In this document: piece by piece, positions 3,542 through 21,103 of the stretch
Layout: every line of letters starts with the position of its first letter
How positions within the stretch are numbered: the stretch's first letter is position 1
Virus record (IMG/VR): IMGVR_UViG_2547132281_000013
Span: 1 to 21,103 of that record
DNA length: 21,103 nt
From: a virus
Lineage: Duplodnaviria; Heunggongvirae; Uroviricota; Caudoviricetes
Strand: one strand, 5' to 3'
Position numbers and translations under genes: made by a program
The notes under the pieces: generated by a model
Database searches by the model: none
Told to the model about the DNA's origin: nothing
What the model saw: only the letters and a program-made list of their open reading frames with translations

Positions 3542-4366
3542 TCAGGCGGTGAAAGTACCAATAAAGGTTTCTACTTTGCTGTCCTTGAATTTCTCAACAA
3601 GCAGATCACGAAATTCGTTAGCCATTTCTTCCTGCACTGCTTCCAGCTGAATAATGCGCAGAACCAGTACAGGACGATCGCCAGTGATAATGCTGAGGCG
3701 TAATTTAAACGGACGTTCTTTCAGGCCTTCAAACGGAACGCATTTAAATTCAAATGCCACAGGCATAATATCTTTGGTCTTCGCTTCGACAGACTCCATC
3801 AGGGAGCGTTTGCCGCTGAAGTCATTGTCTTCAAAATCAGCGGTCTGGTTTGCTTCAATCGTGATTTTACGGACTGCCGCAGCCGCTTTTGTTGCCTGAA
3901 TGGCATCACCATTAGCATCAAAGCCCACAAGGTAGTCGGCCCAGTCTTCGATCCATTCTGCCAGTGACTTCTGGGAGTTACGCTCGCCGTTAACAGACAA
4001 CAGAGCAGAGAACGGTGCTGTCTTTTTCAGTTTGAGAGTGGCAGTGTTATCTGCGTGACCTGGCTCATCAATAGTACCCAGGTTAAGCACACTGACGGCA
4101 CGCATATTATCGGCATCGATAAAGCAGCGGGTGCCTTCATCTGCAAGATCTTTAGAATAACGGGTAAAGTCATCGATGCTGGCAGTGGAAAGCGCACCAC
4201 GGAAACGGAAACGATTTAAATTAAATTTTTCCAGATCATGAATGCGGAAATTCTCAGGCAATGCCACAGCATCGGCACCAATCTTACTGATAATTTCATT
4301 AACACCCTGAGCAGAAATAAGGGCATGGATTTGATTAATTGCGGTTACGTCTAAGTTCTGAGACAT
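3542..4366 (-). CDS. yfdQ: YfdQ-like prophage protein (DUF2303 family)
   Basis: 274-aa ORF with GAGGA 7 nt upstream of the ATG. Length and sequence are recalled as matching CPS-53 YfdQ; assigned from memory. Confidence 0.55.
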
Positions 4367-8828: not shown

Positions 8829-10400
8829 TTACTGAGAGCTCAGATCAACTTTCCAGGGCAACAGATCGCGTACCCGGTTTGCCGGCCAGTCCTGGATATG
8901 TTCAATGACGTAACGCAGCCACTTTTCTGGCTCCACATTGTTCAGACGGCATGTGCCGATCAGCGAGTACAACACCGCCGCATGTTCACCACCGCTGTCG
9001 GAACCCGCGAACATCCAGTTTTTCCGGCCTACGGCCACTCCCCGTAAGGCGTTCTCTGCGATGTTGTTGTCGATTTCCACCCAGCCATTACTGCAGTACA
9101 CGTTCAGTGCATCCCACTGTTTCAGCAGGTATGCGAACGCTTTTGCCGTATCTGAGTGACGCGACAGTGTTTTCATCTGTTGCTGTATCCAGTCATACAG
9201 TGACTGCATCAGTGGCGCGGCTCTGGCTTTTCTTGCCGCCAGACGCTGTTCTGCTGAACAGCCCCGGACCTCTGCCTCGATGGCATACAGTTCACCGATA
9301 CGCTGCAGGGCTTCCGTGGTGATGTCGGTGGGCGCTCTTGCATGCACATCGTGGATTTTTCTCCGGGCATGAGCCATACACGCGGCTTCCGTTATTCTGC
9401 CGGATTCGTATAACGCCCGGTAACCACCGTAAGCATCGGCCTGAAGCACACCGCTGTAACCGGCCAGGTGATTTTGTGGATGGATACCTTTCCGGTCCGG
9501 ACTGTACGCGAACCAGACCGCCGGGGGCATCTGTGAACCGGCGTTACGGTCATCACGGACGTAGACCCACAGCCGGGCTGTCCGGGTTTTACCGCTGCCC
9601 GGCTCCTGGACCGGGACGGGGATATCATCAGCATGGACTTTACCGGGCATCAGCACATACTGGCGCAGGACGTCATACAGCGGCTCCAGCAGTTCAGCAA
9701 CAGCACCTGTCCAGCGCCCCAGTGTGGCACGGCTCAGCTCCACTCCCTGACGACGGTATATTTCTGACTGGCGGTATAACGGCAGATGGTCTGCATATTT
9801 CCCGGTGACAACATGGGCCAGAAGCCCCGCTCCGGCATAACTGCGTGCAATGGGTTTTGAAGGTACTGGTGCCTGCACGATATGGTCGCACCGGCAACAG
9901 GCCTGTTTCGGACGTTGTGTTTCGATAACCTTAAAGGCGCTGCTGATAAGCTCCAGTTGCTCTGACACATCACATCCCAGAGAACTGAGTTCACCACCAC
10001 AGGCAGGACAGCATTCCTCTTCCGGCCGGATAACCCGGGTTTCACGGGGAAGTGAGGCCGGTAACGGTTTACGGGCTGAAGACTGGCGCAGGGCGGATGG
10101 CAGTACCGGGTCATATTGCTCACCCAGCGTTTCCGCCATTTCTTCCTGAAGTGCGCTGATTCGCTCCTGTGCTTCCTGTATCTGCCGTTCGGTTTTTGCA
10201 CGAAGTTTTTCTGAGCTTTTACCGAACTGCATGCGCTGCAGTTTCGCAACCAGCGCCTTCAGCCGGTTGATTTCGGAAGCATAAGCCGCCACCCGCTGTG
10301 AGAGCAGGCGGTTGTATTCAGCCATCTGGCGGATGGTGTCCTGTTGCGTCTGCAACAGTGCCCGCAGGCGGGCGTTCTCATGAGCAAGTGAGGTGTCCAT
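8829..10400 (-). CDS. tnpC: IS66-family transposase TnpC
   Basis: 523 aa with an N-terminal coiled-coil/leucine-zipper region, a CxxC...C zinc-finger-like motif (CCPACGGEL...) and a DDE-type core. Confidence 0.85.
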
Positions 10401-10419
10401 ATCCTCACTTTACAACGGG

Positions 10420-10767
10420 TTATATGCGGATTCCAGCGCGTTCCGTTCGTTTCGGGTGCTTCCAGTTGATACCTTCAAGAAGCATGGATAACTGAGCCGG
10501 AGTAAGGTGCACCTTGCCGTCACGGGTGACTGGCCAGACGAAGCGGCCCCGCTCCAGGCGTTTGGTGAAGAGGCACAGTCCGTCACTGTCAGCCCACAAC
10601 ACTTTTATCTGGTCACCCCGGCGTCCGCGGAAGATGAACAGGTGTCCGGAGAACGGGTCATCCTTCAGGACGTTCTGAACTTTTGATGCCAGGCCGTTAA
10701 AGCCATTTCGCATATCGGTGATACCTGCAACCAGCCAGATACGCGAACCTGCAGGGAGAGATATCAT
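10420..10767 (-). CDS. tnpB: IS66-family accessory protein TnpB
   Basis: 115 aa, typical IS66 Orf2 (LWADSDGLCLFTKRLERGRFVWP), translationally coupled to tnpA. Confidence 0.8.
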   Translation of the reverse strand: MISLPAGSRIWLVAGITDMRNGFNGLASKVQNVLKDDPFSGHLFIFRGRRGDQIKVLWADSDGLCLFTKRLERGRFVWPVTRDGKVHLTPAQLSMLLEGINWKHPKRTERAGIRI

Positions 10768-11444
10768 CAGTGGCTGCTCCCTTTTATTTCGCGGATAAGT
10801 GTCTGTAATAACGCCGGCGTCAGTTTACCTTTAAGCCTGAGAGTTCCGGCCGGCAGAACCAGCTCACAACACAGACTGTCGGACGGTGTATTTATCTGCT
10901 CTGGTTCCTGTGCGGGGGCCGGGATTTTATTATCCGGCTCCGGCGTTAACGTCACGGGAAGCAGTGCCGGCATATTTTTTCCGGAAGGCAGCAGGCCACC
11001 TTTCCGGTATTGATGGCGCCAGTTGAAGAGCAGGTTATCGTTGATTCCGTTTTCCCGGGCGATCTGCGCCACACAGGCTCCGGGCTGCAGTGACTGCTCC
11101 ACTAAGGCGATTTTAAACTCATAAGGGAAGTTGGGCCGCCGGGGACGTTTTTTTACCACGGGGGCTTCGGATATAACGGTGCTTTCAGGACGTACGACTG
11201 GTACCGTGGAAAATTGTCCGTAAAGGCAGGCATCAAGTTCCTGCTCCGACATGCCTGCGGGCAAAGGCCACGAAAGGCCAGCTCTCCGAAAGCGCACGAA
11301 CATACTACAAACTGTTGATTTTGGTACACCCAGGCGACGCCCGGCCACAACCCGGGGTAAATGTTCTTCAAAGTGAAGACGTAAAGCTTCAGTGATCCAG
11401 GTCCGGTGTTTCATACGATAGTGTCCATTAAAAATGATGGACAT
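10767..11444 (-). CDS. tnpA: IS66-family accessory protein TnpA (HTH), with an N-terminal extension
   Basis: The C-terminal part carries the IS66 OrfA HTH (PRRPNFPYEFKIALVEQSLQPGACVAQIARENGINDNLLFNWRHQYRKG). Start is uncertain between the ATGs at 11444 and 11414. Confidence 0.7.
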   Translation of the reverse strand: MSIIFNGHYRMKHRTWITEALRLHFEEHLPRVVAGRRLGVPKSTVCSMFVRFRRAGLSWPLPAGMSEQELDACLYGQFSTVPVVRPESTVISEAPVVKKRPRRPNFPYEFKIALVEQSLQPGACVAQIARENGINDNLLFNWRHQYRKGGLLPSGKNMPALLPVTLTPEPDNKIPAPAQEPEQINTPSDSLCCELVLPAGTLRLKGKLTPALLQTLIREIKGSSH

Positions 11445-12197: not shown

Positions 12198-12701
12198 GTG
12201 CCGCATATGGCTGGAACGGCGGGGCGTTCCGGGCGTCGCCCCAAGCCAACGGCGCGCAAGGCGCTGGCCGGAAACCCCGGCAAGCGAGCCCTGAATAAAG
12301 ATGAACCTGTTTTTACGCCCATCAAAGGTGTTGAGCCACCGGAGTGGTTCGCTGAAGAAGATCTCCCTCTCGCCACGATCATGTGGCAACTGACAACTAA
12401 AGAACTCTGCGGTCAGGGCCTGCTGTGCGTGACTGACCTCGCAGTGCTTGAGCGGTGGTGTGTGGCCTATGAGTTCTGGCGACGTGCCGTGAAAAATATT
12501 GCCAGACAGGGCAACACCATCACCGGTGCAATGGGCGGTATGGTCAAAAATCCGGAGCTGACCGCCAAAAAAGAACAGGAGTCCGAGATGAGCAGTACGG
12601 GGGCAATGCTCGGACTCGACCCCAGCAGCCGCCAGCGTCTAATTGGCCTGGCGGGGAAGAAGAAAGCCACTAACCCGTTTCTGAAAATCATCGAATCATG
12701 A
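12198..12701 (+). CDS. terminase small subunit (P27-family-like)
   Basis: [21 protein letters not shown] motif. The likely start is the ATG at 12207, which has AGGAG 8 nt upstream; the ORF-track start at 12198 is a GTG. Stop overlaps the terL start (ATGA). Confidence 0.75.
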
Positions 12702-13561
12702 GCCGGAAATCTTACCCCAACGTAAATGCTGCCAATCAGTATGCCCGTGATGTCGTGCGCGGAAAGATTGTGGCCTGCCAGTTTGTGATTCAGGCCTGCC
12801 AGCGGCATCTTGATGACCTGATGGCGGAAAAAAGTAAGTCGTTTCGTTACCGCTTCGACAAGGACCTGGCTGAACGGGCCGCTAAATTTATTCAGCTGTT
12901 GCCGCACACCAAGGGTGAGTGGGCATTTAAGAGGATGCCCATCACGCTGGAGCTGTGGCAGCTCTTTGTGATCTGCTGCGCGTTTGGCTGGGTCAATAAA
13001 GGCTCCCGGCTGCGCCGCTTCCGTGAGGTGTATACCGAAATCCCCCGTAAGAACGGCAAATCGGCAATCTCTGCCGGTGTCGCCCTGTATTGTTTTGCCT
13101 GTGATAACGAGTTCGGCGCGGAAGTGTATTCCGGTGCCACGACGGAGAAACAGGCATGGGAAGTCTTTCGTCCGGCAAGACTGATGTGTAAACGCACACC
13201 CATGCTAACGGAAGCGTTCGGGATTGAGGTTAACGCCTCAAACATGAACCGTCCGGAGGATGGTGCGCGTTTTGAACCGCTGATCGGTAACCCCGGTGAT
13301 GGTTCATCACCCCACTGTGCGGTGGTGGATGAATATCACGAGCACGCCACCGATGCGCTTTACACCACGATGCTTACCGGGATGGGGGCGCGACGTCAGC
13401 CACTGATGTGGGCCATTACTACTGCCGGGTACAACATTGAGGGGCCGTGCTACGACAAGCGGCGGGAAGTTATCGAGATGCTCAACGGGTCGGTACCTGG
13501 CCTGCGGTACAGAATGACCGTTACGGCTCCCGACTGTGGCTGCTTCAGCGCAGCAAACTGA
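12698..13561 (+). pseudogene. terminase large subunit, N-terminal ATPase portion only (truncated)
   Basis: Walker A-like GKS (PRKNGKSA) and Walker B-like VVDEYHE are present. The frame stops at 287 aa after a non-conserved tail, and no nuclease domain follows. Confidence 0.65.
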
Positions 13562-13770
13562 CCAATCAGCTGGTGCAGACGGTAAGGGGGTATATCCGCG
13601 AATGCCTGCAATGGATGATTGATGACGGCGTGGTGTCCCGTATTGATCTGGATATCCGCCGCACCGGGATTAATGAACTGGGTAACAGTATCACTCTCTG
13701 GCGTCGTGACGGACCGGTAATGATTTCTTTTGATGATCTGTGGAGTGCGATAACGCATGGCGGACAGTGA
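13562..13770 (+). pseudogene. start-less C-terminal remnant of the gene preceding baseplate J (possibly gpW/gp25-like)
   Basis: Protein-like frame (...IRECLQWMIDDGVVSRIDLDIRRTGINELGNSITLWRRDGPVMISFDDLW...) ending in overlap with the baseplate J start. No credible start or RBS after the terL stop. Confidence 0.25.
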
Positions 13771-14815
13771 ATTTCAGCGCCCGACGCTGGCAGAAAATAT
13801 CAGTATGCTCCGTAACGATTTATTCGCCAGGCTGGACGTCAGCGACACGCTCCGGCGCATGGATGAAGACGTGCGGGCAAAGGTGTATGCGGCGGCGCTG
13901 CATACGGTTTACGGTTACATCGATTATCTGGCAATGAACATGCTGCCTGACCTGTGCGATGAGTCCTGGCTGGCGCGACATGCTGCGATGAAACGGTGTC
14001 CGCGCAAGGGAGCCACGGCTGCCAGTGGGTATATGCGCTGGGAAGGTGTCAGCGATGGCCTGAAGGTGACCGCCGGGAGTGTTATTCAGCGCGATGACCT
14101 GGTGCAGTACACGACAACTGACGATGCAACCAGCTCCGGTGGTGTCCTGCGCGTGCCGATCGCCTGCTCAAGTGCAGGTGCGGTCGGTAACGCTGACGAC
14201 GGTACGGCATTAATCCTGGTCACGCCGGTGAATGGTCTGCCGTCTTCCGGTGTGGCTGACACCCTGACAGGCGGATTTGATACTGAAGAGCTGGAAACGT
14301 GGCGCGCCCGCGTCATTGAGCGGTATTACTGGACGCCGCAGGGCGGGGCTGACGGGGACTATGTTGTCTGGGCTAAAGAAGTGCCCGGCATTACCCGCGC
14401 ATGGACATACCGACACTGGATGGGAACGGGGACTGTCGGTGTGATGATTGCCAGCAGCGACCTGATTAACCCCATTCCGGAAGAATCAACGGAAACGGCG
14501 GCAAGACAACACATTGAGCCACTGGCCCCGGTGGCAGGCTCTGATTTGTATGTATTCAGGCCGGTGGCGCACAAAGTGGATTTTCATATCCGCGTGACTC
14601 CGGACACACCGGAAATACGGGATGCCATCACCGCGGAGTTGCGTTCATTCCTGCTGCGTGATGGTTATCCGCAGGGAGAGCTGAAGGTATCGCGTATCAG
14701 TGAAGCGATTTCCGGTGCGAACGGGGAATACAGCCATCAGTTGCTTGCTCCGGCGGACAATATCTCCATTGCAAAAAATGAACTGGCGGTTCTGGGGACG
14801 ATTTCATGGACGTGA
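13757..14815 (+). CDS. baseplate assembly protein J-like (P2 gpJ family)
   Basis: 352 aa. Position immediately upstream of a gpI-like and tail-fibre gene with overlapping start/stop, and overall similarity to the e14 jayE-type protein. Confidence 0.75.
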
Positions 14816-15390
14816 CAAACGATGATTACATCCGTCTGTTGTCGGCACTGTTGCCCCCTGGTCCGGCGTGGTCAGCCAGCGATCCGGCGATTGCCGGTGC
14901 GGCACCGTCATTAACCCGTGCTCATCAGCGTGCGGATGCCCTGATGCGGGAGCTGGATCCGCGCACCACCACCGAACTGATAAACCGCTGGGAGCGTCTG
15001 TGCGGCCTGCCGGATGAATGTATTCCGGCAGGGACGCAGACCCTTCGCCAGCGTCAGCAACGGCTGGATGCGAAGGTTAACCTGGCGGGCGGCATCAATG
15101 AGGATTTTTACCTTGCGCAGCTTGCTGCCCTGGGCAGACCAGATGCCACCATCACGCGATACGACAAAAGCACGTTCACCTGCTCATCGGCCTGTACTGA
15201 CGCGGTGAATGCGCCGGAATGGCGGTATTACTGGCAGGTCAATATGCCAGCTGCCACCAACACCACCTGGATGACATGTGGCGATCCCTGCGATTCCGCA
15301 CTGCGTATCTGGGGGGACACCGTTATCGAGTGCGTGCTTAACAAACTCTGCCCGTCGCATACCTACGTAATTTTTAAATATCCGGAGTAA
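14806..15390 (+). CDS. P2 gpI-like tail protein (YmfQ-like)
   Basis: 194 aa, overlapping the gpJ-like stop. Conserved N-terminal LLPPGPAW motif. Length matches e14 YmfQ from memory. Confidence 0.7.
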
Positions 15391-15393
15391 TCC

Positions 15394-16320
15394 ATGCATC
15401 GTATAGACACGAAAACCGCGCAAAAGGATAAGTTCGGCGCGGGTAAGAACGGTTTTACCCGTGGTAACCCCCAGACAGGCACGCCTGCCACCGATCTGGA
15501 TGATGACTACTTTGACATGTTGCAGGAAGAGCTCTGCAGCGTGGTGGAGGCATCCGGTGCCAGCCTGGAGAAGGGGCGGCATGACCAGCTGCTTACCGCG
15601 CTTCGTGCGCTGCTGTTAAGTCGCAAAAATCCGTTTGGCGATATCAAATCGGACGGCACGGTGAAAACGGCTCTTCAAAACCTTGGTTTGGGAGATACAA
15701 GCGGATACGTGGGACGCCGGCTGAGTACCTGGGCTTTCGCGTCATCAGGTACGTATACCCCATCACTAGAAACAAAACGGATCAGGGTCACAATAACGGG
15801 CGGCGGTGGCGGAGGGGGGGGCTGCCAGGCTATATCCAGTAACGAAACGTTTTTCGGTGCTGGCGGTGGGGCCGGAGGGACAGTAATCACCATACTGACC
15901 CCGACACAGAATAGTTATCCTGTCACTATCGGCGCAGGTGGGGCCGGCGGCGTTGGTGCGACGAACGGCCTCAAGGGCGGTGATAGCTCGTTCGGATCGG
16001 TAATAGCCCCTGGTGGTGAAGGCGGCGGAAAATCAGGAGTCACAAACACAAACGGCGGTAACGGAGGCGTACCGAATATTGGCGATATCCGCATCACTGG
16101 TGGAGATGGAGGCGACGGTCAGTCCGGGAATATCGGCGTCAGCGGTGAAGGCGGTGCATCGTACTGGGGAGGCGGTGGACGCGCAGGCTCTGGCGGTGGC
16201 GTTAGAGGCAGGGCATTTGGTTCAGGCGGAGGTGGTGCATACGATGCAGGTTATAGCGGAACCAGTATGACGGGCGGGAAAGGTGCTGCTGGGGTTTGTA
16301 TTATCGAGGAGTTTGCATAA
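15394..16320 (+). CDS. side tail fibre protein (constant N-terminus plus Gly-rich variable C-terminus)
   Basis: N-terminus [47 protein letters not shown]... is the conserved Mu/e14-type fibre N-terminal region. The C-terminus is made of GGxGG repeats. The gene crosses the invertible-segment boundary at 15683-15684. Confidence 0.8.
15671..15696. other. Din-family (gix/hix/pix-like) recombination site, left boundary of the invertible segment
   Basis: CTCTTCAAAACC-TT-GGTTTGGGAGAT is an imperfect 26-bp dyad resembling hix/gix, and is an inverted copy of the site at 17503-17528. Confidence 0.6.
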
Positions 16321-16730
16321 TGAATGCGTCATATGCAGTTATTGAAAATGGGATGGTTGTGAATGTCATTGTCTGGGATGGCGAGGATGAATTCACTGTG
16401 CCGGATAATCTGCAGCTCATTAATATTTCTGATATCAGTGAGCAGCCCGGAATCGGCTGGGCGTATTCAGACGGGATATTTACTGCGCCGCTCCCTCCGG
16501 AACGTTCTCATGATGAACTGGTAGCTGACGCTGAACAGAAAAAACAGTCGCTGATAGACGCAGCAATGGCCAATATCAGCGTGATTCAGTTAAAGCTGCA
16601 GGCCGGGCGCAAACTGACGCAAGAAGAAACTACCAGACTTAACGTTGTGCTGGATTACATTGACGCGGTGACAGCAACTGATACCAGCACCGCGCCAGAT
16701 GTCATCTGGCCTGAACTGCCGGAGGCGTAG
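16320..16730 (+). CDS. tfa: tail fibre assembly protein
   Basis: Start ATG overlaps the stf stop (TAATG), with GAGGAG 9 nt upstream. C-terminal ...LDYIDAVTATDTSTAPDVIWPELP is the conserved tail-fibre-assembly motif. Confidence 0.8.
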   Translation: MNASYAVIENGMVVNVIVWDGEDEFTVPDNLQLINISDISEQPGIGWAYSDGIFTAPLPPERSHDELVADAEQKKQSLIDAAMANISVIQLKLQAGRKLTQEETTRLNVVLDYIDAVTATDTSTAPDVIWPELPEA

Positions 16731-17142
16731 GCCATTCAATATCTGGCGCACTGGAAGTATCGACCAGCTCCAGTGCGTCCAGATAATCCAGCCACAAATT
16801 ATATTGCGCCAGTTCCTCACCTTTCAGACGACCAATAGCCGCTTTACCAGCCCATTGTTTACTGTTCATATAATCGTTGGCCTGATTAATCAATTGCTGC
16901 TTTTCCAGTTCGGCTGCAGCAATCTGTTCCTCATGTGTTGGTGGTGGAATTTCAGACCATGCAGGAAAACCATTTTCTCCAGCGATACGGATTTTTCCTT
17001 TCGGCGGTAATCCGGAAAACTCAATATACGCTTGCTCATCAACTTCAACAGCATCATCTGGCCATGAGTCAGCTTGAGTGTAATCCTCTTTCATTTCCAG
17101 TGGATAGAAAGAGTTTGTAGTCGCGGAATATATGTAATTCAT
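16702..17142 (-). CDS. tfa: tail fibre assembly protein, alternative copy
   Basis: 146 aa. C-terminal ...LWLDYLDALELVDTSSAPDIEWPTPP. Its 3' end converges on and overlaps the other tfa. Confidence 0.8.
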   Translation of the reverse strand: MNYIYSATTNSFYPLEMKEDYTQADSWPDDAVEVDEQAYIEFSGLPPKGKIRIAGENGFPAWSEIPPPTHEEQIAAAELEKQQLINQANDYMNSKQWAGKAAIGRLKGEELAQYNLWLDYLDALELVDTSSAPDIEWPTPPAVQAR

Positions 17143-17163
17143 TTTTCACTCCATATAGCTAAA

Positions 17164-17514
17164 TTAACAGCCTAACGCTAAAAATGAAGCGCCGAGACCT
17201 GGAGTACTGGCTCTGGATATAAATTTAACCGGGTCGGAACTAAAAGCTGCGCAGGCAATATAACCAACAGACCCGCTATCTGGTGTGTAGTCTTGTGAGA
17301 CCAAAACACGCAGACATCGGTTTGGAAATGCAATCGGAAAATGGGTTACCACATCCTGTGCAATGCCTGGTGCGCCGATTGAGCCCCACTGAAGAATAAA
17401 ACCAGATGGTAATTTTTGATATCCAGTACCTGAAACAGAAAGCGTGAAGCTACCCATATCAGGTATCTGATTCGTCCCTGTCCCCACATTCCTTTTTGCC
17501 GCTTCTCCCAAACC
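17164..17514 (-). CDS. alternative tail-fibre C-terminal segment, start-less; expressed only after inversion
   Basis: The frame begins exactly at the crossover core (GGT TTG GGA GAA = GLGE...), matching the ...QNLGLGD... junction in stf. The first 14 ORF-track codons (17515-17556) lie outside the segment and are not coding. Confidence 0.6.
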
Positions 17515-17528
17515 AACGTTTATGAAAA
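17503..17528. other. Din-family recombination site, right boundary of the invertible segment
   Basis: TTCTCCCAAACC-AA-CGTTTATGAAAA, about 55 bp upstream of the pin remnant. Shares GGTTTGGGAGA with the left site in inverted orientation. Confidence 0.6.
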
Positions 17529-17582
17529 TGCAGAAATAACAAGCAAATGGCATCATTCCTGCTTTTGTCAGGGAGATCTATC

Positions 17583-17711
17583 ATGCTTATTGGTTATGTA
17601 CGCGTATCAACAAATGACCAGAATACCGATCTACAACGCAATGCGCTGAACTGTGCAGGGTGTGAGCTGATTTTTGAAGACAAGATAAGCGGTACAAAGT
17701 CCGAGACCTAG
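17583..17711 (+). pseudogene. pin: DNA invertase (Pin/Gin/Hin serine recombinase) remnant, N-terminal 42 codons
   Basis: MLIGYVRVSTNDQNTDLQRNALNCAGCELIFEDKISGTKSE matches the conserved N-terminus of Din invertases, including the catalytic Ser in VRVSTNDQ. A stop follows codon 42 and downstream sequence is unrelated. Confidence 0.8.
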
Positions 17712-17748
17712 GGCTGACACTGCTGTTCTTGATGCAAATTAAAGGATT

Positions 17749-17776
17749 TAATAGTGAGTAGCGGCCTTACTAATGT
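17749..17776. terminator. perfect 12-bp stem / 4-nt loop hairpin; candidate bidirectional terminator
   Basis: TAGCGGCCTTAC-TAAT-GTAAGGCCGCTA with AT-rich flanks on both sides. Lies 31 bp past the stop of the minus-strand DUF262/DUF1524 gene. Confidence 0.5.
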
Positions 17777-17806
17777 AAGGCCGCTATAATCATTTTATTA
17801 ATTGCA

Positions 17807-19696
17807 TTAATCGTGTTTTGGCCATACTTTCAATGCAATTTCCCCCAACTTTTTACCCCGCTCCAGGATTTCATCCTCATCCCATTTATCCTTAACTATA
17901 AGTGGAATGTTCAGTCGTAGATTGGTGTGGACGATGAGAGCATCACGTTTTTTCAGAAATACAGCATTCTGAACAGAACGGTTTACGCTAAGGTTAAGCA
18001 AAGTTAGATTTCCCAACGTAGCTATCGCTTGTTGCCGTTTCCTTACCAGTAGCTGTTCAGGGGTAAGATCGGTTCCAGACAGAACAATTTGGTTCAATAC
18101 CGTAGCATCTGAATTTGTCACCATATGACCATTTTCGAGAGGCCAACAGGAAAACCAACTTTGAGGCATAAGATGATCGATATCGAGATTGGAAAGATTT
18201 GGACCATCAGGCTTCTCTGTCTTCACTTGGCGACAAAGTTCTCTTTCAAGTTCCGTTAACATTGAGCGCATTTTCGGTGCGTCGAGCCTGCCAGGATAAA
18301 GTGGAGCATTGATGCAAGCATTGAGAAATTCTGAGTCACCAGGCCAACGTGAGGCTTCGCCATTTAAGCTATTGAGGATATTACGTAACTCAACACTGGA
18401 AATTTCCGTTTTAGACAAGTGCCGCAATACATTCATAAATACATTGTTGTAATTCTTTGGCGTCAGGCCACATACGGCTCTTCGTACTACGTAGGAGACA
18501 AGATCATTATACATGGCTGCTTTCTCATCATCAGCGATGTTAGCTATCGAAATGAACAAAGCAAGCGGATAAAGTGTCGTCACATCATAGTCTGCGATGC
18601 GATATCCAAAGTGTGAGATGGGGGTTGTGCCAAAACCATCAACCAATTCTTTATATTGTGATGCATATTGTTTGAGGCGCTTTACTTGCAGATCTGCTCG
18701 TTGTGAAGACAAGTCCTTACTTACATAATCACGATACTCATTGTAAAGGCGAGACAGATCAATTTCACGCTGCCTTTCTGATTGCAATGTCGCATGTACT
18801 AGCCACTCCATGCGTGGTTTATTAATACGTCCACGGCGTTGCTTTTCCGACCAGTATTTATCTTCAAAGCTCTTCCACTCATTTTCATATAATTCAATAG
18901 CATTAATATTTTCATGCTCAGCGCACATAAAGATATAGTTGCGAATAAGATCCGTGGCATGAAGTTCCGCCCCTCGCCCATTTAATGTTTCAAAAATTAT
19001 TTGGGCATCATCTTCAGCTTCGAGAAATATGCTTACCAGTTTCAGATCTGTTAAGACAGCCTCAATTAGAGCTACAGCATTTTCTTGTGGTGAGTGGTTT
19101 TCTATTTTAATCCATTTTATAAAGGCTTCAGTAAAAAAACATAATGCTTCTAGTGATGGCGGGTGATTAAAATGCTTACGCAACGTACCATGCTGCGTGA
19201 AACTATCAGAGAATACGTCCCGGAGATCGTCAATATTTTCAACATTAAAACTTTGAATAAAATGAGTTTGATCCCGAAAAGTTGGCCATAGTTTGAAGCG
19301 TTCTACTTCTTTATTTCGCATTGTGTCTTCGTTTGAGTTTTTCAGGCAAGGCGAAATGAGAGCCTCTAAGCTGAAAAGATCCGTAGCACGTAATGCTAAT
19401 CGGATGGATGCCAGAACATATTGAAGAGTGGTCAATCGTTGCTGACCATCAATAATATGTATGGAATCTACACCTAATAATCCTTTTTTTGATTGAGGTT
19501 CCAGTACAACCGCACCAAGGAAATGGGGAGTTGGTTTTGTACCCGAGAGCCGGGATTGTGCTTTCTCTAGGATATCCTCCAGTAGAGCTGACCATTGGTC
19601 TTGCTGAGTCCATACATAGGCACGTTGATAGAATGGAACACAGTATTGTCGGCGGTCTTGAAAAAGTTGTTGGACAGTTAGCGTCTCGGATTTCAT
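17807..19696 (-). CDS. DUF262/DUF1524 protein, GmrSD-like candidate type IV (modification-dependent) restriction endonuclease
   Basis: N-terminal DUF262 hallmark ...SIHIIDGQQRLTTLQYVLASI... (DGQQR). C-terminal DUF1524-type His-Me finger motifs ...LDIDHLMPQSW... and ...LGNLTLLNLSVNRSVQN.... The likely start is the ATG at 19696 (MKSETLTVQQLF...) with AGGT upstream; the maximal ORF extends to 19756 but has no RBS. Confidence 0.75.
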   Translation of the reverse strand: MKSETLTVQQLFQDRRQYCVPFYQRAYVWTQQDQWSALLEDILEKAQSRLSGTKPTPHFLGAVVLEPQSKKGLLGVDSIHIIDGQQRLTTLQYVLASIRLALRATDLFSLEALISPCLKNSNEDTMRNKEVERFKLWPTFRDQTHFIQSFNVENIDDLRDVFSDSFTQHGTLRKHFNHPPSLEALCFFTEAFIKWIKIENHSPQENAVALIEAVLTDLKLVSIFLEAEDDAQIIFETLNGRGAELHATDLIRNYIFMCAEHENINAIELYENEWKSFEDKYWSEKQRRGRINKPRMEWLVHATLQSERQREIDLSRLYNEYRDYVSKDLSSQRADLQVKRLKQYASQYKELVDGFGTTPISHFGYRIADYDVTTLYPLALFISIANIADDEKAAMYNDLVSYVVRRAVCGLTPKNYNNVFMNVLRHLSKTEISSVELRNILNSLNGEASRWPGDSEFLNACINAPLYPGRLDAPKMRSMLTELERELCRQVKTEKPDGPNLSNLDIDHLMPQSWFSCWPLENGHMVTNSDATVLNQIVLSGTDLTPEQLLVRKRQQAIATLGNLTLLNLSVNRSVQNAVFLKKRDALIVHTNLRLNIPLIVKDKWDEDEILERGKKLGEIALKVWPKHD

Positions 19697-19874
19697 GGTA
19701 TACCTGTAAGCGACATTGTACAAAAGTGAGGAGTTAATCTGATTTAGAACAATCATTTTATTTTGCTATGATACAACGTATTTGTTACCGGTTAAGCAAA
19801 AAACGCGTCTGAACGCTGACGTTTTAGGGCTTTACTGGTTATTCTTTCTTATCTCTTCATCATTGGATTTGCCC

Positions 19875-20780
19875 CTATATTTCCAGACATCTGTTATCAC
19901 TTAACCCATTACAAGCCCGCTGCCGCAGATATTCCCGTGGCGAGCGATAACCCAGCGCACTATGCGGATGCCATTCGTTATAATGCTCGAACGCCTCTGC
20001 AAGGTTCTTTGCTGCCGTTAACCCGTCTGGTTTGGGCATGATACTGATGTAGTCACGCTTTATCGTTTTCACGAAGCTCTCTGCTATTCCGTTACTCTCC
20101 GGACTCCGCACCGCCGTGTTCTTCGGTTCAAGTCCCAACATCCGGGCGAACTGGCGTGTTTCATTAGCCCGGTAGCATGAACCATTATCCGTCAGCCACT
20201 CCACTGGAGACGACGGAAGATCGTTGCCGAAGCGGCGTTCCACCGCTCCCAGCATGACGTCCTGTACTGTTTCACTGTTGAAGCCGCCGGTAGTGACCGC
20301 CCAGTGCAGTGCCTCACGATCACAGCAGTCCAGCGCGAACGTGACACGCAGTCTCTCTCCGTTATCACAGCAGAACTCGAACCCGTCAGAGCACCATCGC
20401 TGATTGCTTTCTTTCACGGCCACTCTGCCTGTATGTGCCCGTTTCGATGGCGGTACAGCAGGTTTTCGCTCAAGCAACAGCGCATTCTGGCGCATGATCC
20501 GGTAAACACGTTTGGCATTGATCGCAGGCATACCATCAAGTTCTGCCTGTCTGCGAAGCAGCGCCCATACCCGACGATAACCATACGTGGGCAGCTCTCC
20601 GATAACATGGTGTATACGGAGAAGCACATCCGTATCATCAGTGTGACGACTGCGGCGGCCATCCATCCAGTCATCGGTTCGTCTGAGAATGACGTGCAAC
20701 TGCGCACGCGACACCCGGAGACAACGGCTGACTAAGCTTACTCCCCATCCCCGGGCAATAAGGGCGCGTGCGCTATCCAC
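19875..20780 (-). CDS. insD: IS2 transposase InsD (OrfB, DDE integrase domain)
   Basis: 301 aa, GTG-initiated frame [28 protein letters not shown]... recalled as IS2 InsD. In vivo it is expressed mainly as an InsCD fusion by -1 frameshifting. Confidence 0.85.
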
Positions 20781-21103
20781 TTTTTTGCCCGTCCATATTC
20801 AACGGCTTCTTTGAGGAGTTCATTTTCCATCGTTTTCTTGCCGAGCAGGCGCTGGAGTTCTTTAATCTGCTTCATGGCGGCAGCAAGTTCAGAGGCAGGA
20901 ACAACCTGTTCTCCGGCGGCGACAGCAGTAAGACTTCCTTCCTGGTATTGCTTACGCCAGAGAAATAACTGGCTGGCTGCTACACCATGTTGCCGGGCAA
21001 CGAGGGAGACCGTCATCCCCGGTTCAAAGCTCTGCTGAACAATTGCGATCTTTTCCTGTGTGGTACGCCGTCTGCGTTTCTCCGGCCCTAAGACATCAAT
21101 CAT
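20738..21103 (-). CDS. insC: IS2 InsC (OrfA, HTH)
   Basis: 121 aa, [56 protein letters not shown].... Confidence 0.85.
20780..20786 (-). promoter_or_regulatory. programmed -1 ribosomal frameshift heptamer A AAA AAG (insC to insD)
   Basis: Minus-strand GCA AAA AAG TGG in the insC frame; a -1 slip reads AAA AAA GTG GAT AGC..., which is the insD frame. Confidence 0.7.

Follow-up and report, generated by a model that had tools for sequence, protein, structure and literature searches.

The tail-fibre locus in the window (the whole 21,103-nucleotide stretch of viral DNA analysed here) raises the question of whether a fibre switch can still be thrown once its own recombinase is gone. A sequence-only reading had proposed a Din-type invertible fibre segment like Mu G, P1 C and e14 P, acting as a host-range switch. 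The structural part of that proposal is right, and the segment is of the e14 P type because its crossover sites differ very little from the K-12 e14 pair; to call this copy a working host-range switch goes beyond the evidence, given an invertase stub of 42 codons and the loss of virion genes. We consider it quite likely that the locus is an orphan e14-type P segment in a degraded prophage, one that flips only through a Pin-type invertase from elsewhere.

Crossover sites and exchangeable fibre ends

The segment had been described as bracketed by imperfect 26-bp inverted dyad sites, and their positions and sequences (Table 1) are confirmed. Realigned as inverted repeats, the two sites hold as inverted copies with 19 of 26 bases matching, and they share a perfect 13-bp block, TTGGTTTGGGAGA, that spans the 2-bp core and the inner half-site. 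A repeat finder returned inverted arms of 18 nt at 15678-15695 and 17504-17521 (94% complementary); when the 3.2-kb region was resampled 300 times with a Markov model, an equally good inverted pair arose once, and AAACCNNGGTTT, allowing at most one mismatch, has four matches in the window against 0.61 expected. Identical 2-bp cores are required for religation after a 180-degree rotation. The left core is TT and the right core, AA on the plus strand, is TT on the other, making the two identical as inverted repeats. Dyad symmetry within the sites amounts to 9 of 12 positions on the left and 8 of 12 on the right, and comparison with Mu gix and a published consensus (PMC4134206) shows that both fit an AAACC-NN-GGTTT centre, in inverted orientation. 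The right site is identical to the K-12 e14 right site at 26 of 26 bases, and the left site to its e14 counterpart at 23 of 26. Further crossover sites within the segment, as in a multi-site system of the Min-like or shufflon-like kind, were considered and rejected: only two sites fit, a 26-mer at 17305 has just one passable half-site, and one re-inversion is enough to make the segments of relatives colinear.

Table 1. Features of the invertible fibre locus, in window coordinates
Feature	Position	Strand	Details
Constant 5' part of stf, codons 1-97	15394-15684	+	Fixed during flip
Left crossover site, inside stf	15671-15696		CTCTTCAAAACC-TT-GGTTTGGGAGAT; encodes ..QNLGLGD
Variable 3' stf, expressed position, 211 aa	15685-16320	+	Glycine-rich domain
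Tail-fibre assembly gene paired with Gly-rich tip, 136 aa	16320-16730	+	PF02413 Caudo_TAP, E=7e-22
Tail-fibre assembly gene paired with alternative tip, 146 aa	16702-17142	-	PF02413, E=2e-38
Alternative fibre C-terminus, gp53-like receptor-binding tip	17164-17514	-	116 aa after inversion
Right crossover site	17503-17528		TTCTCCCAAACC-AA-CGTTTATGAAAA
Short fixed leader, 14 aa	17515-17556	-	ATG outside segment; part of ORF 17164-17556
pin invertase gene stub, 42 codons	17583-17711	+	No enzyme encodable
Predicted recombinational enhancer in pin stub	17604-17667		Homology and spacing

Between the cores lie 1830 bp of invertible DNA (15685-17514), in keeping with the roughly 1.83 kb first proposed. 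The contents also agree, by ORFs and Pfam domains, with the earlier description of a variable 3' part of stf, two convergent assembly genes and a minus-strand fibre C-terminus. The stf ORF (15394-16320) runs on continuously from its constant into its variable part. Residues 1-97 differ from K-12 StfP at two positions, and in a species-wide scan the homology of Stf to proteins of other species covered only residues 1 to about 101, ending at the site, a pattern of sequence similarity that supports a module boundary there; DNA similarity to SfV stops at 15695. The Gly-rich tip matches Pfam PF21722 (Gly_rich_2, E=4e-13, residues 119-305), and the stf stop overlaps the start of its assembly gene (TAATG). 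This gene, tfa1, is intact in the window and carries an internal stop in the closest relative, L001; the 3' ends of the two assembly genes overlap by 29 bp (16702-16730). The alternative tip matches Pfam PF21882 (Gp53-like_C, E=4e-16) and weakly resembles, in sequence, solved tail-fibre tips from R-type pyocins and from phage fibres. As had been claimed, it forms an in-frame alternative C-terminus: the core closes stf codon 97 (CTT), and the flipped arrangement reads as a 213-aa ORF. The lengths of 212 and 117 aa first given for the variable parts need correction to 211 and 116 aa after Leu97. In the state of the window, stf codons 1-97 are joined to the Gly-rich tip, followed by its assembly gene, and in the alternative state they would be joined to the gp53-like tip, followed by the other assembly gene.

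Structural and phage-wide comparisons were less informative. Single-sequence AlphaFold2 modelling of the Gly-rich fibre gave a mean pLDDT of only 35, and a sequence search of Stf against solved structures found nothing. In a tblastn search against isolated phages, the sole match to the Gly-rich tip was the fibre of jumbo phage Goslar, covering half of the query, with the low-complexity filter probably hiding more. In RefSeq relatives the continuous stf is split into a ‘pseudogene’ and a ‘glycine-rich protein’ and the silent tip is annotated as free-standing; the segment structure described here provides a correction for both.

The minus-strand fibre ORF had been called start-less. This is accurate within the segment; just outside it, an ATG at 17556 matches the annotated K-12 stfE start. 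The leader from this ATG would continue through the right site into the adjacent tip, whichever of the two that is, so that a second in-frame chimera becomes possible after inversion, namely a predicted 225-aa ORF in which the leader is joined to the Gly-rich part. A promoter scan of 15200-17900 found no site above chance, none near either junction and no sigma-70-like site near the minus-strand ORF.

A truncated invertase in a decayed prophage

An intact serine invertase gene next to the segment is a mark of the Din family, and here only codons 1-42 of one are left. The stub is identical to PinE residues 1-41 (41 of 41) and is then cut short by a 2-base deletion and a stop; by about 17745 the resemblance to intact pinE has faded. 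The stub matches Pfam Resolvase at profile positions 2-48 of 145 only, keeping the catalytic serine but neither the remaining catalytic domain nor the DNA-binding domain, and the remainder of pin is replaced by a GmrSD restriction gene. No other ORF of the invertase/resolvase family was found in the 21-kb window. With the cis invertase reduced to this stub, any inversion must occur in trans.

The stub may nonetheless contribute DNA to the reaction. It aligns gap-free with the beginnings of the K-12 pinE and Mu gin genes and of what we take to be the hin sequence, across both positions predicted for Fis sites (15 bp each, 17604-17618 and 17653-17667). Measured from the right core to their centres, these predicted sites are 95.5 and 144.5 bp away; for hixL and its proximal Fis site the distance is about 99-100 bp (PMC3798978). 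The enhancer positions are thus predicted from homology to hin and gin together with this published spacing, and we infer that the enhancer works. A serine invertase dimer would bind each 26-bp site and, with Fis on the enhancer, four subunits would cut the TT/AA cores, rotate by 180 degrees and religate, flipping 15685-17514; the invertase would be supplied elsewhere in the cell or by an incoming phage.

By sequence, the host element is a degraded SfV/e14-like Escherichia coli prophage. It lacks all head genes and most tail genes (sheath, tube and tape measure are lost), and its heavy decay involves two IS elements and a deletion that extends from TerL to baseplate J. Its closest relatives adjoin tRNA-Pro/yejM or lie near ykgJ/ydfV, not at icd. 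Since the virion genes are lost, there is no particle whose host range could change, and the original host-range function is lost in this copy.

This decay, like the reduction of pin to 42 codons, is also what would be expected of a frozen fossil, a once-active switch locked in the Gly-rich orientation after its invertase was gone. Many relatives, moreover, are without the left site; in APEC O78 and ACN001, for example, similarity begins at window position 16203. We regard such a fossil as possible, if somewhat unlikely, given that the window retains both sites, four intact ORFs and the enhancer-equivalent DNA, and that trans inversion by other Pin enzymes is documented (PMC12529663, PMC4134206). 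Comparison of sequenced strains bears on the same alternative.

Orientation of the locus in public genomes

The window itself presents a single orientation, with the Gly-rich tip in the expressed position, and the sequence-only reading had hinged on whether this is the only one ever seen. Related public E. coli genomes carry the locus in both orientations, with exchange at the core: 14 have the window orientation and three, retrieved with a synthetic inverted version of the window as query, are flipped. Strain 50EVA matches the flipped window end to end (100% coverage, 96.9% identity), and strains T2 and ET474 also match it; a 123-nt recombinase remnant and a DUF262/GmrSD gene are common to all three flipped loci. 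The last base of the left site is T in the window orientation and A in flipped relatives, as is the first base of the right site, so that the base distinguishing the inner half-sites is swapped as exchange within the 13-bp block predicts.

A direct comparison is between strains D3 and T2, which, after re-inversion of the segment, show no mismatches over 4.2 kb, made up of 1500 bp of left flank, the 1793-bp segment and 900 bp of right flank. Because the stub is shared by both strains and the flip is the only difference between their loci, the inversion is very recent and occurred after the truncation, which argues against a frozen fossil. The dominance of the window orientation, 14 to 3, fits a fossil better, and the ratio also implies that flipping may be rare. 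Flipping by a trans-acting enzyme would account for the D3/T2 pair, and we infer that the strain of origin still flips; in strain T2, the annotation shows no invertase on one side of the locus over 46 kb.

The two orientations could have another origin: general homologous recombination or gene conversion involving a different e14-like prophage, or assembly errors. Prophages of this kind are mosaic, many genomes hold several related places (median 2 per genome), and the pin stubs of two lineages differ at eight codons, seven of them synonymously, a pattern in the sequences that suggests exchange with intact pin genes. However, the 13-bp identical block is too short for efficient RecA-dependent recombination, and an imported segment would carry differences, whereas the D3 and T2 segments and flanks are 100% identical; a mis-assembly, for its part, may equally reflect a mixed population and hence active inversion, as in EC958 (PMC4134206). 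We therefore consider these routes very unlikely, and inversion of an orphan segment in trans remains our preferred account.

Comparison with known systems

Plasterk and van de Putte reportedly gave the first description of the e14 P segment in 1985. Inversion of this segment takes place at TTGGTTTGGGAGAAGG repeats, with PinE, PinQ and PinR as the enzymes that flip it; in K-12, PinQ-driven inversion creates StfE2, which blocks adsorption of phage T2 (PMC12529663). This precedent allows for a co-opted defence switch, in which the orphan segment was kept since its flipped products, stf with the gp53-like tip and the 17556 leader with the Gly-rich tip, would guard the cell against phages. The two chimeric ORFs are each in frame, all ORFs are intact despite the loss of structural genes, the enhancer-equivalent DNA is kept in the stub, and the adjoining GmrSD restriction gene provides a defence context, the pin'-GmrSD junction being present in at least 133 genomes. 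Set against this, the scan gave the minus-strand ORF no promoter-like site, and the tfa1 stop in the closest relative and the loss of half the segment in many relatives do not fit strong selection. The tips also differ from those of K-12 StfP and StfE, and the phage T2-blocking activity is therefore not transferable to this segment. On balance we find a co-opted defence switch rather improbable. Its fullest form, a host-retained switch beside GmrSD (sites, enhancer-bearing stub, fibre-tip and chaperone genes) that invertases of other prophages or of an infecting phage flip to make chimeric tips that block the receptors of incoming phages, strikes us as very improbable; if true, it would be a second, independent recombinase-activated defence after PinQ/e14, and one without its own invertase.

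Din-type fibre switches, the e14 P segment and trans inversion with a dead invertase have all been published. The locus adds a clean natural case of an invertible segment outliving its recombinase, with a stub that holds enhancer-equivalent DNA, and a candidate for extending the e14/PinQ anti-phage mechanism to other fibre-tip cassettes.

The resemblance to e14 is closest. Besides e14-type sites, a near-identical StfP 1-97 and a stub equal to PinE over 41 residues, the window has the gene order of the P segment, stf-tfa-tfa-stf'-pin (stfP-tfaP-tfaE-stfE-pinE in K-12); the e14 tfaP and tfaE genes likewise overlap by 29 bp, a short fixed leader ORF crosses the right site in both, and a type IV restriction gene follows pin, mcrA in e14 and GmrSD in the window. 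The K-12 e14 segment measures 1825 bp core to core, close to that of the window, and is given as 1797 bp in PMC12529663. The differences are that pinE is intact in e14, that e14 lies at icd whereas the host element here is SfV-like, and that the K-12 StfP and StfE tips are missing from the window: its Gly-rich tip (PF21722) is absent from K-12 e14, and its other tip is a different gp53-like one.

Mu G (Gin, gix) and P1 C (Cin) follow the same logic, a constant 5' fibre and two alternative in-frame 3' parts, each with an assembly gene, and they share the layout of inverted 26-bp sites with the invertase gene just outside. Mu and the window have the same 67.5 bp between core and invertase start, and the 5' end of the Mu invertase gene aligns gap-free with the stub across the Fis-site positions. 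In contrast, Mu has a TC/GA core where the window has TT/AA, several half-site positions differ, the fibre proteins are unrelated in their variable parts, and Mu is a complete phage with active Gin, whereas the window prophage is decayed. In its lack of a working invertase, a parallel is the prophage Phi4 of E. coli EC958, an invertible fibre segment found in both orientations although its own invertase is severely truncated, with the inversion credited to a trans invertase (PMC4134206). Phi4 has a P2-like fibre, a tail-collar domain and TC-core sites, unlike the window, and its orientations were observed in single-molecule reads of one culture, whereas ours come from the comparison of different sequenced strains.

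Crossover sites and alternative fibre tips

The sequence-only reading had placed two imperfect 26-bp sites in inverted orientation around about 1.83 kb, and both sites were confirmed in sequence and position. Compared as inverted copies, they are identical at 19/26 positions, share matching cores within a perfect 13-bp block (TTGGTTTGGGAGA) that spans the 2-bp core and the inner half-site, and enclose 1830 bp from core to core (15685-17514). An independent repeat finder returned the same inverted pair (18 nt, 94% complementary), an equally good pair arose in 1/300 resamples of the surrounding 3.2 kb, and the central motif AAACCNNGGTTT occurs four times in the window at ≤1 mismatch, against 0.61 expected. 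A left-type site (CTCTCGAAAACCTTGGTTTGGGAGAA, encoding ..NLGLG..) is also kept in the SfV-like fibre genes of two comparison loci, L012 and L013 (about 4278-4303). In the 4 kb downstream, neither locus has a right site or an invertase, so a left-type site on its own is no evidence of an invertible segment.

The 97-codon constant 5′ part of stf stops precisely on the left core, and the residues beyond it include a Pfam Gly_rich_2 domain. The alternative tip is gp53-like and weakly resembles, at the sequence level, fibre tips of R-type pyocins and phages whose structures are solved. Each tip has its own chaperone gene; these two Caudo_TAP genes are convergent, their 3′ ends overlapping by 29 bp. 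When the segment is inverted in silico, stf codon 97 runs in frame into the gp53-like tip and a 213-aa protein results, which confirms that the stf frame continues into the inverted right arm; the exchanged C-termini, given earlier as 212 and 117 aa, are each one residue shorter (211 and 116). The minus-strand fibre C-terminus is present as described but not strictly start-less: like the annotated stfE of K-12, its ORF begins at an ATG (17556) outside the segment, so that inversion would also fuse a second chimera in frame, 225 aa long. RefSeq divides the uninterrupted 308-aa stf ORF between a "stfP pseudogene, missing C-terminus" and a distinct "glycine-rich domain-containing protein" (L001 6016-6942, L002 6095-7021, L007 4095-5021), and enters the silent tip of relatives as a free-standing gene, because one state of an invertible gene was annotated.

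Features of the invertible segment and its surroundings in the window
Feature	Coordinates	Strand	Details
IS66-family element	8829-11444		interrupts early region of prophage; 523-aa transposase and two accessory ORFs
stf	15394-16320	+	308 aa; 97-codon constant part and 211 variable residues
Left crossover site	15671-15696		CTCTTCAAAACC-TT-GGTTTGGGAGAT, as quoted in the sequence-only reading
Caudo_TAP assembly gene (tfa1)	16320-16730	+	
Caudo_TAP assembly gene	16702-17142	-	
gp53-like fibre tip	17164-17514	-	
Right crossover site	17503-17528		TTCTCCCAAACC-AA-CGTTTATGAAAA, as quoted in the sequence-only reading
Predicted Fis sites	17604-17618 and 17653-17667		by homology to pinE/gin/hin
GmrSD-family type IV restriction gene	17807-19756	-	649 aa; Pfam GmrSD_N and GmrSD_C
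IS2	19875-21103		right end of window, just past GmrSD gene

Both orientations in public genomes

A flipped form of 15300-17800, built in silico, was searched against complete E. coli genomes, and both orientations occur naturally, the crossover lying at the core: the window orientation in 14 genomes, and the flipped form in strains 50EVA, T2 and ET474. The 50EVA locus matches the flipped query end to end in a single piece (100% coverage, 96.9% identity), and a junction-specific search agrees, placing the Gly-rich tip beside the pin invertase stub in three genomes. One base tells the inner half-sites apart; they read ...GGGAGAT and TTCTCCC... in the window orientation and ...GGGAGAA and ATCTCCC... 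in the flipped loci, the swap that reciprocal exchange inside the 13-bp block would predict.

Strain D3 has the window orientation and strain T2 the flipped one; with the segment re-inverted, their left flank (1500 bp), segment (1793 bp) and right flank (900 bp) show 100% identity. The 123-nt recombinase remnant, the junction and the GmrSD gene are shared by all three flipped loci. The inversion was thus very recent, in a lineage whose invertase was already dead. General recombination or mis-assembly could also yield two orientations, but is unlikely given an exchange window of 13 bp and the complete sequence match between D3 and T2. Most simply, another Pin-type enzyme would have acted on the segment in trans; the annotation of T2 shows no invertase in 46 kb to one side of its locus. 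There is precedent in e14, where inversion in trans has been demonstrated (PMC12529663), and in EC958 Phi4, another prophage with a truncated invertase, for which it was inferred (PMC4134206). By this route, a Pin-type dimer on each site and Fis on the enhancer would form an invertasome that cleaves at TT/AA and rejoins the ends after a 180-degree rotation, the invertase being supplied by another prophage or phage.

A dead invertase in a decayed prophage

Beside the right site, pin is a stub: its 41 residues match PinE 1-41 without exception, a 2-base deletion and a stop codon come next, and by about 17745 no resemblance to intact pinE is left. The GmrSD gene occupies the place expected for the 3′ three quarters of pin and is itself followed by IS2. 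Among 5426 complete E. coli genomes, at least 133 have some form of this pin′-GmrSD junction, UTI89, S88 and ATCC 11775 included. The stubs of two lineages (window 17583-17705; L004/L007 6247-6369) share the truncation junction and differ at eight codons, seven of them synonymously, a pattern unexpected under free decay that suggests either that intact pin genes converted the stubs or that the polymorphism is older than the truncation. Between the stub and the GmrSD 3′ end lies a GC-rich hairpin (17758-17787; 13-bp stem, T-rich tail), which may be a bidirectional terminator that marks the boundary of the GmrSD insertion.

Din invertases require a Fis-bound enhancer. K-12 pinE, Mu gin and hin each give an ungapped alignment with the first ~125 nt of the stub, and the hin sequence contains ATTTA and TAATG tracts. 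Such tracts have been placed between the two Fis sites of hin, whose enhancer lies in the 5′ end of the gene, about 99-100 bp from hixL (PMC3798978). Measured from the right core, the Fis sites predicted in the stub lie at 95.5 and 144.5 bp, and the core-to-start-codon distance is 67.5 bp in both Mu and the window. From the gapless alignment and these positions it follows that all enhancer-equivalent DNA is retained; by homology, the stub DNA is a putative enhancer.

The prophage around the segment is gutted. A TerL ATPase fragment (12698-13561, 287 aa) is joined almost directly (<200 bp) to baseplate J (13757-14815), and no head, sheath, tube or tape-measure gene is left in the window prophage, whereas comparison locus L002 has a complete tail module. 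Deletion has removed all of the head and the greater part of the tail module, which leaves the prophage defective. The IS66-family element is ISCro1-like in the annotation of relatives. With a stub for a cis invertase and these gene losses, the window copy can neither flip itself nor build a particle of alterable host range, and a working host-range switch is too strong a reading for it; in the window strain the segment is possibly a locked fossil. An attractive candidate role is co-option, on the model of StfE2, as an anti-phage switch: the ORFs are intact though the prophage is gutted, the stub carries enhancer-equivalent DNA, a restriction gene adjoins the segment and two in-frame chimeras would form. 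Against such co-option, there is no promoter-like site, tfa1 has a stop codon in the closest relative, and half of the segment is lost in many relatives.

Comparison with e14 and SfV-like phages

The wider element is SfV/e14-like. The right and left sites of the cryptic K-12 prophage e14 are identical to those of the window at 26/26 and 23/26 positions, K-12 StfP and the window Stf differ at two of their first 97 residues, the gene order stf-tfa-tfa-stf′-pin is common to both, and mcrA beside pinE parallels the GmrSD gene beside the stub. Inversion of the e14 P segment at TTGGTTTGGGAGAAGG repeats is experimentally proven, with PinE, PinQ and PinR all able to flip it (PMC12529663). At 15695, at the left site, the DNA resemblance to phages SfV, SfI and SfIV breaks off, and the match of Stf to its homologues in other species is confined to residues 1 to about 101; the site is thus a module boundary. 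The module of stf, segment, pin′ and GmrSD is found in two chromosomal settings (right flanks of L004, L007 and L008 versus L001-L003), one adjoining tRNA-Pro/yejM and the other a ydfV fragment and flxA or ykgJ (Qin-like genes), so it has moved or recombined between prophages.

With e14-type sites, in-frame tips and both orientations in relatives, the identification of a Din-type invertible tail-fibre segment is sound, though the finding is ordinary: the kind of element, its sites, inversion in trans and even the truncated-invertase case are all already published. Particular to this locus are i) the pairing of a Gly-rich with a gp53-like tip, ii) the pin′-GmrSD junction, common to at least 133 genomes, and iii) direct comparative evidence for inversion after truncation of the invertase.
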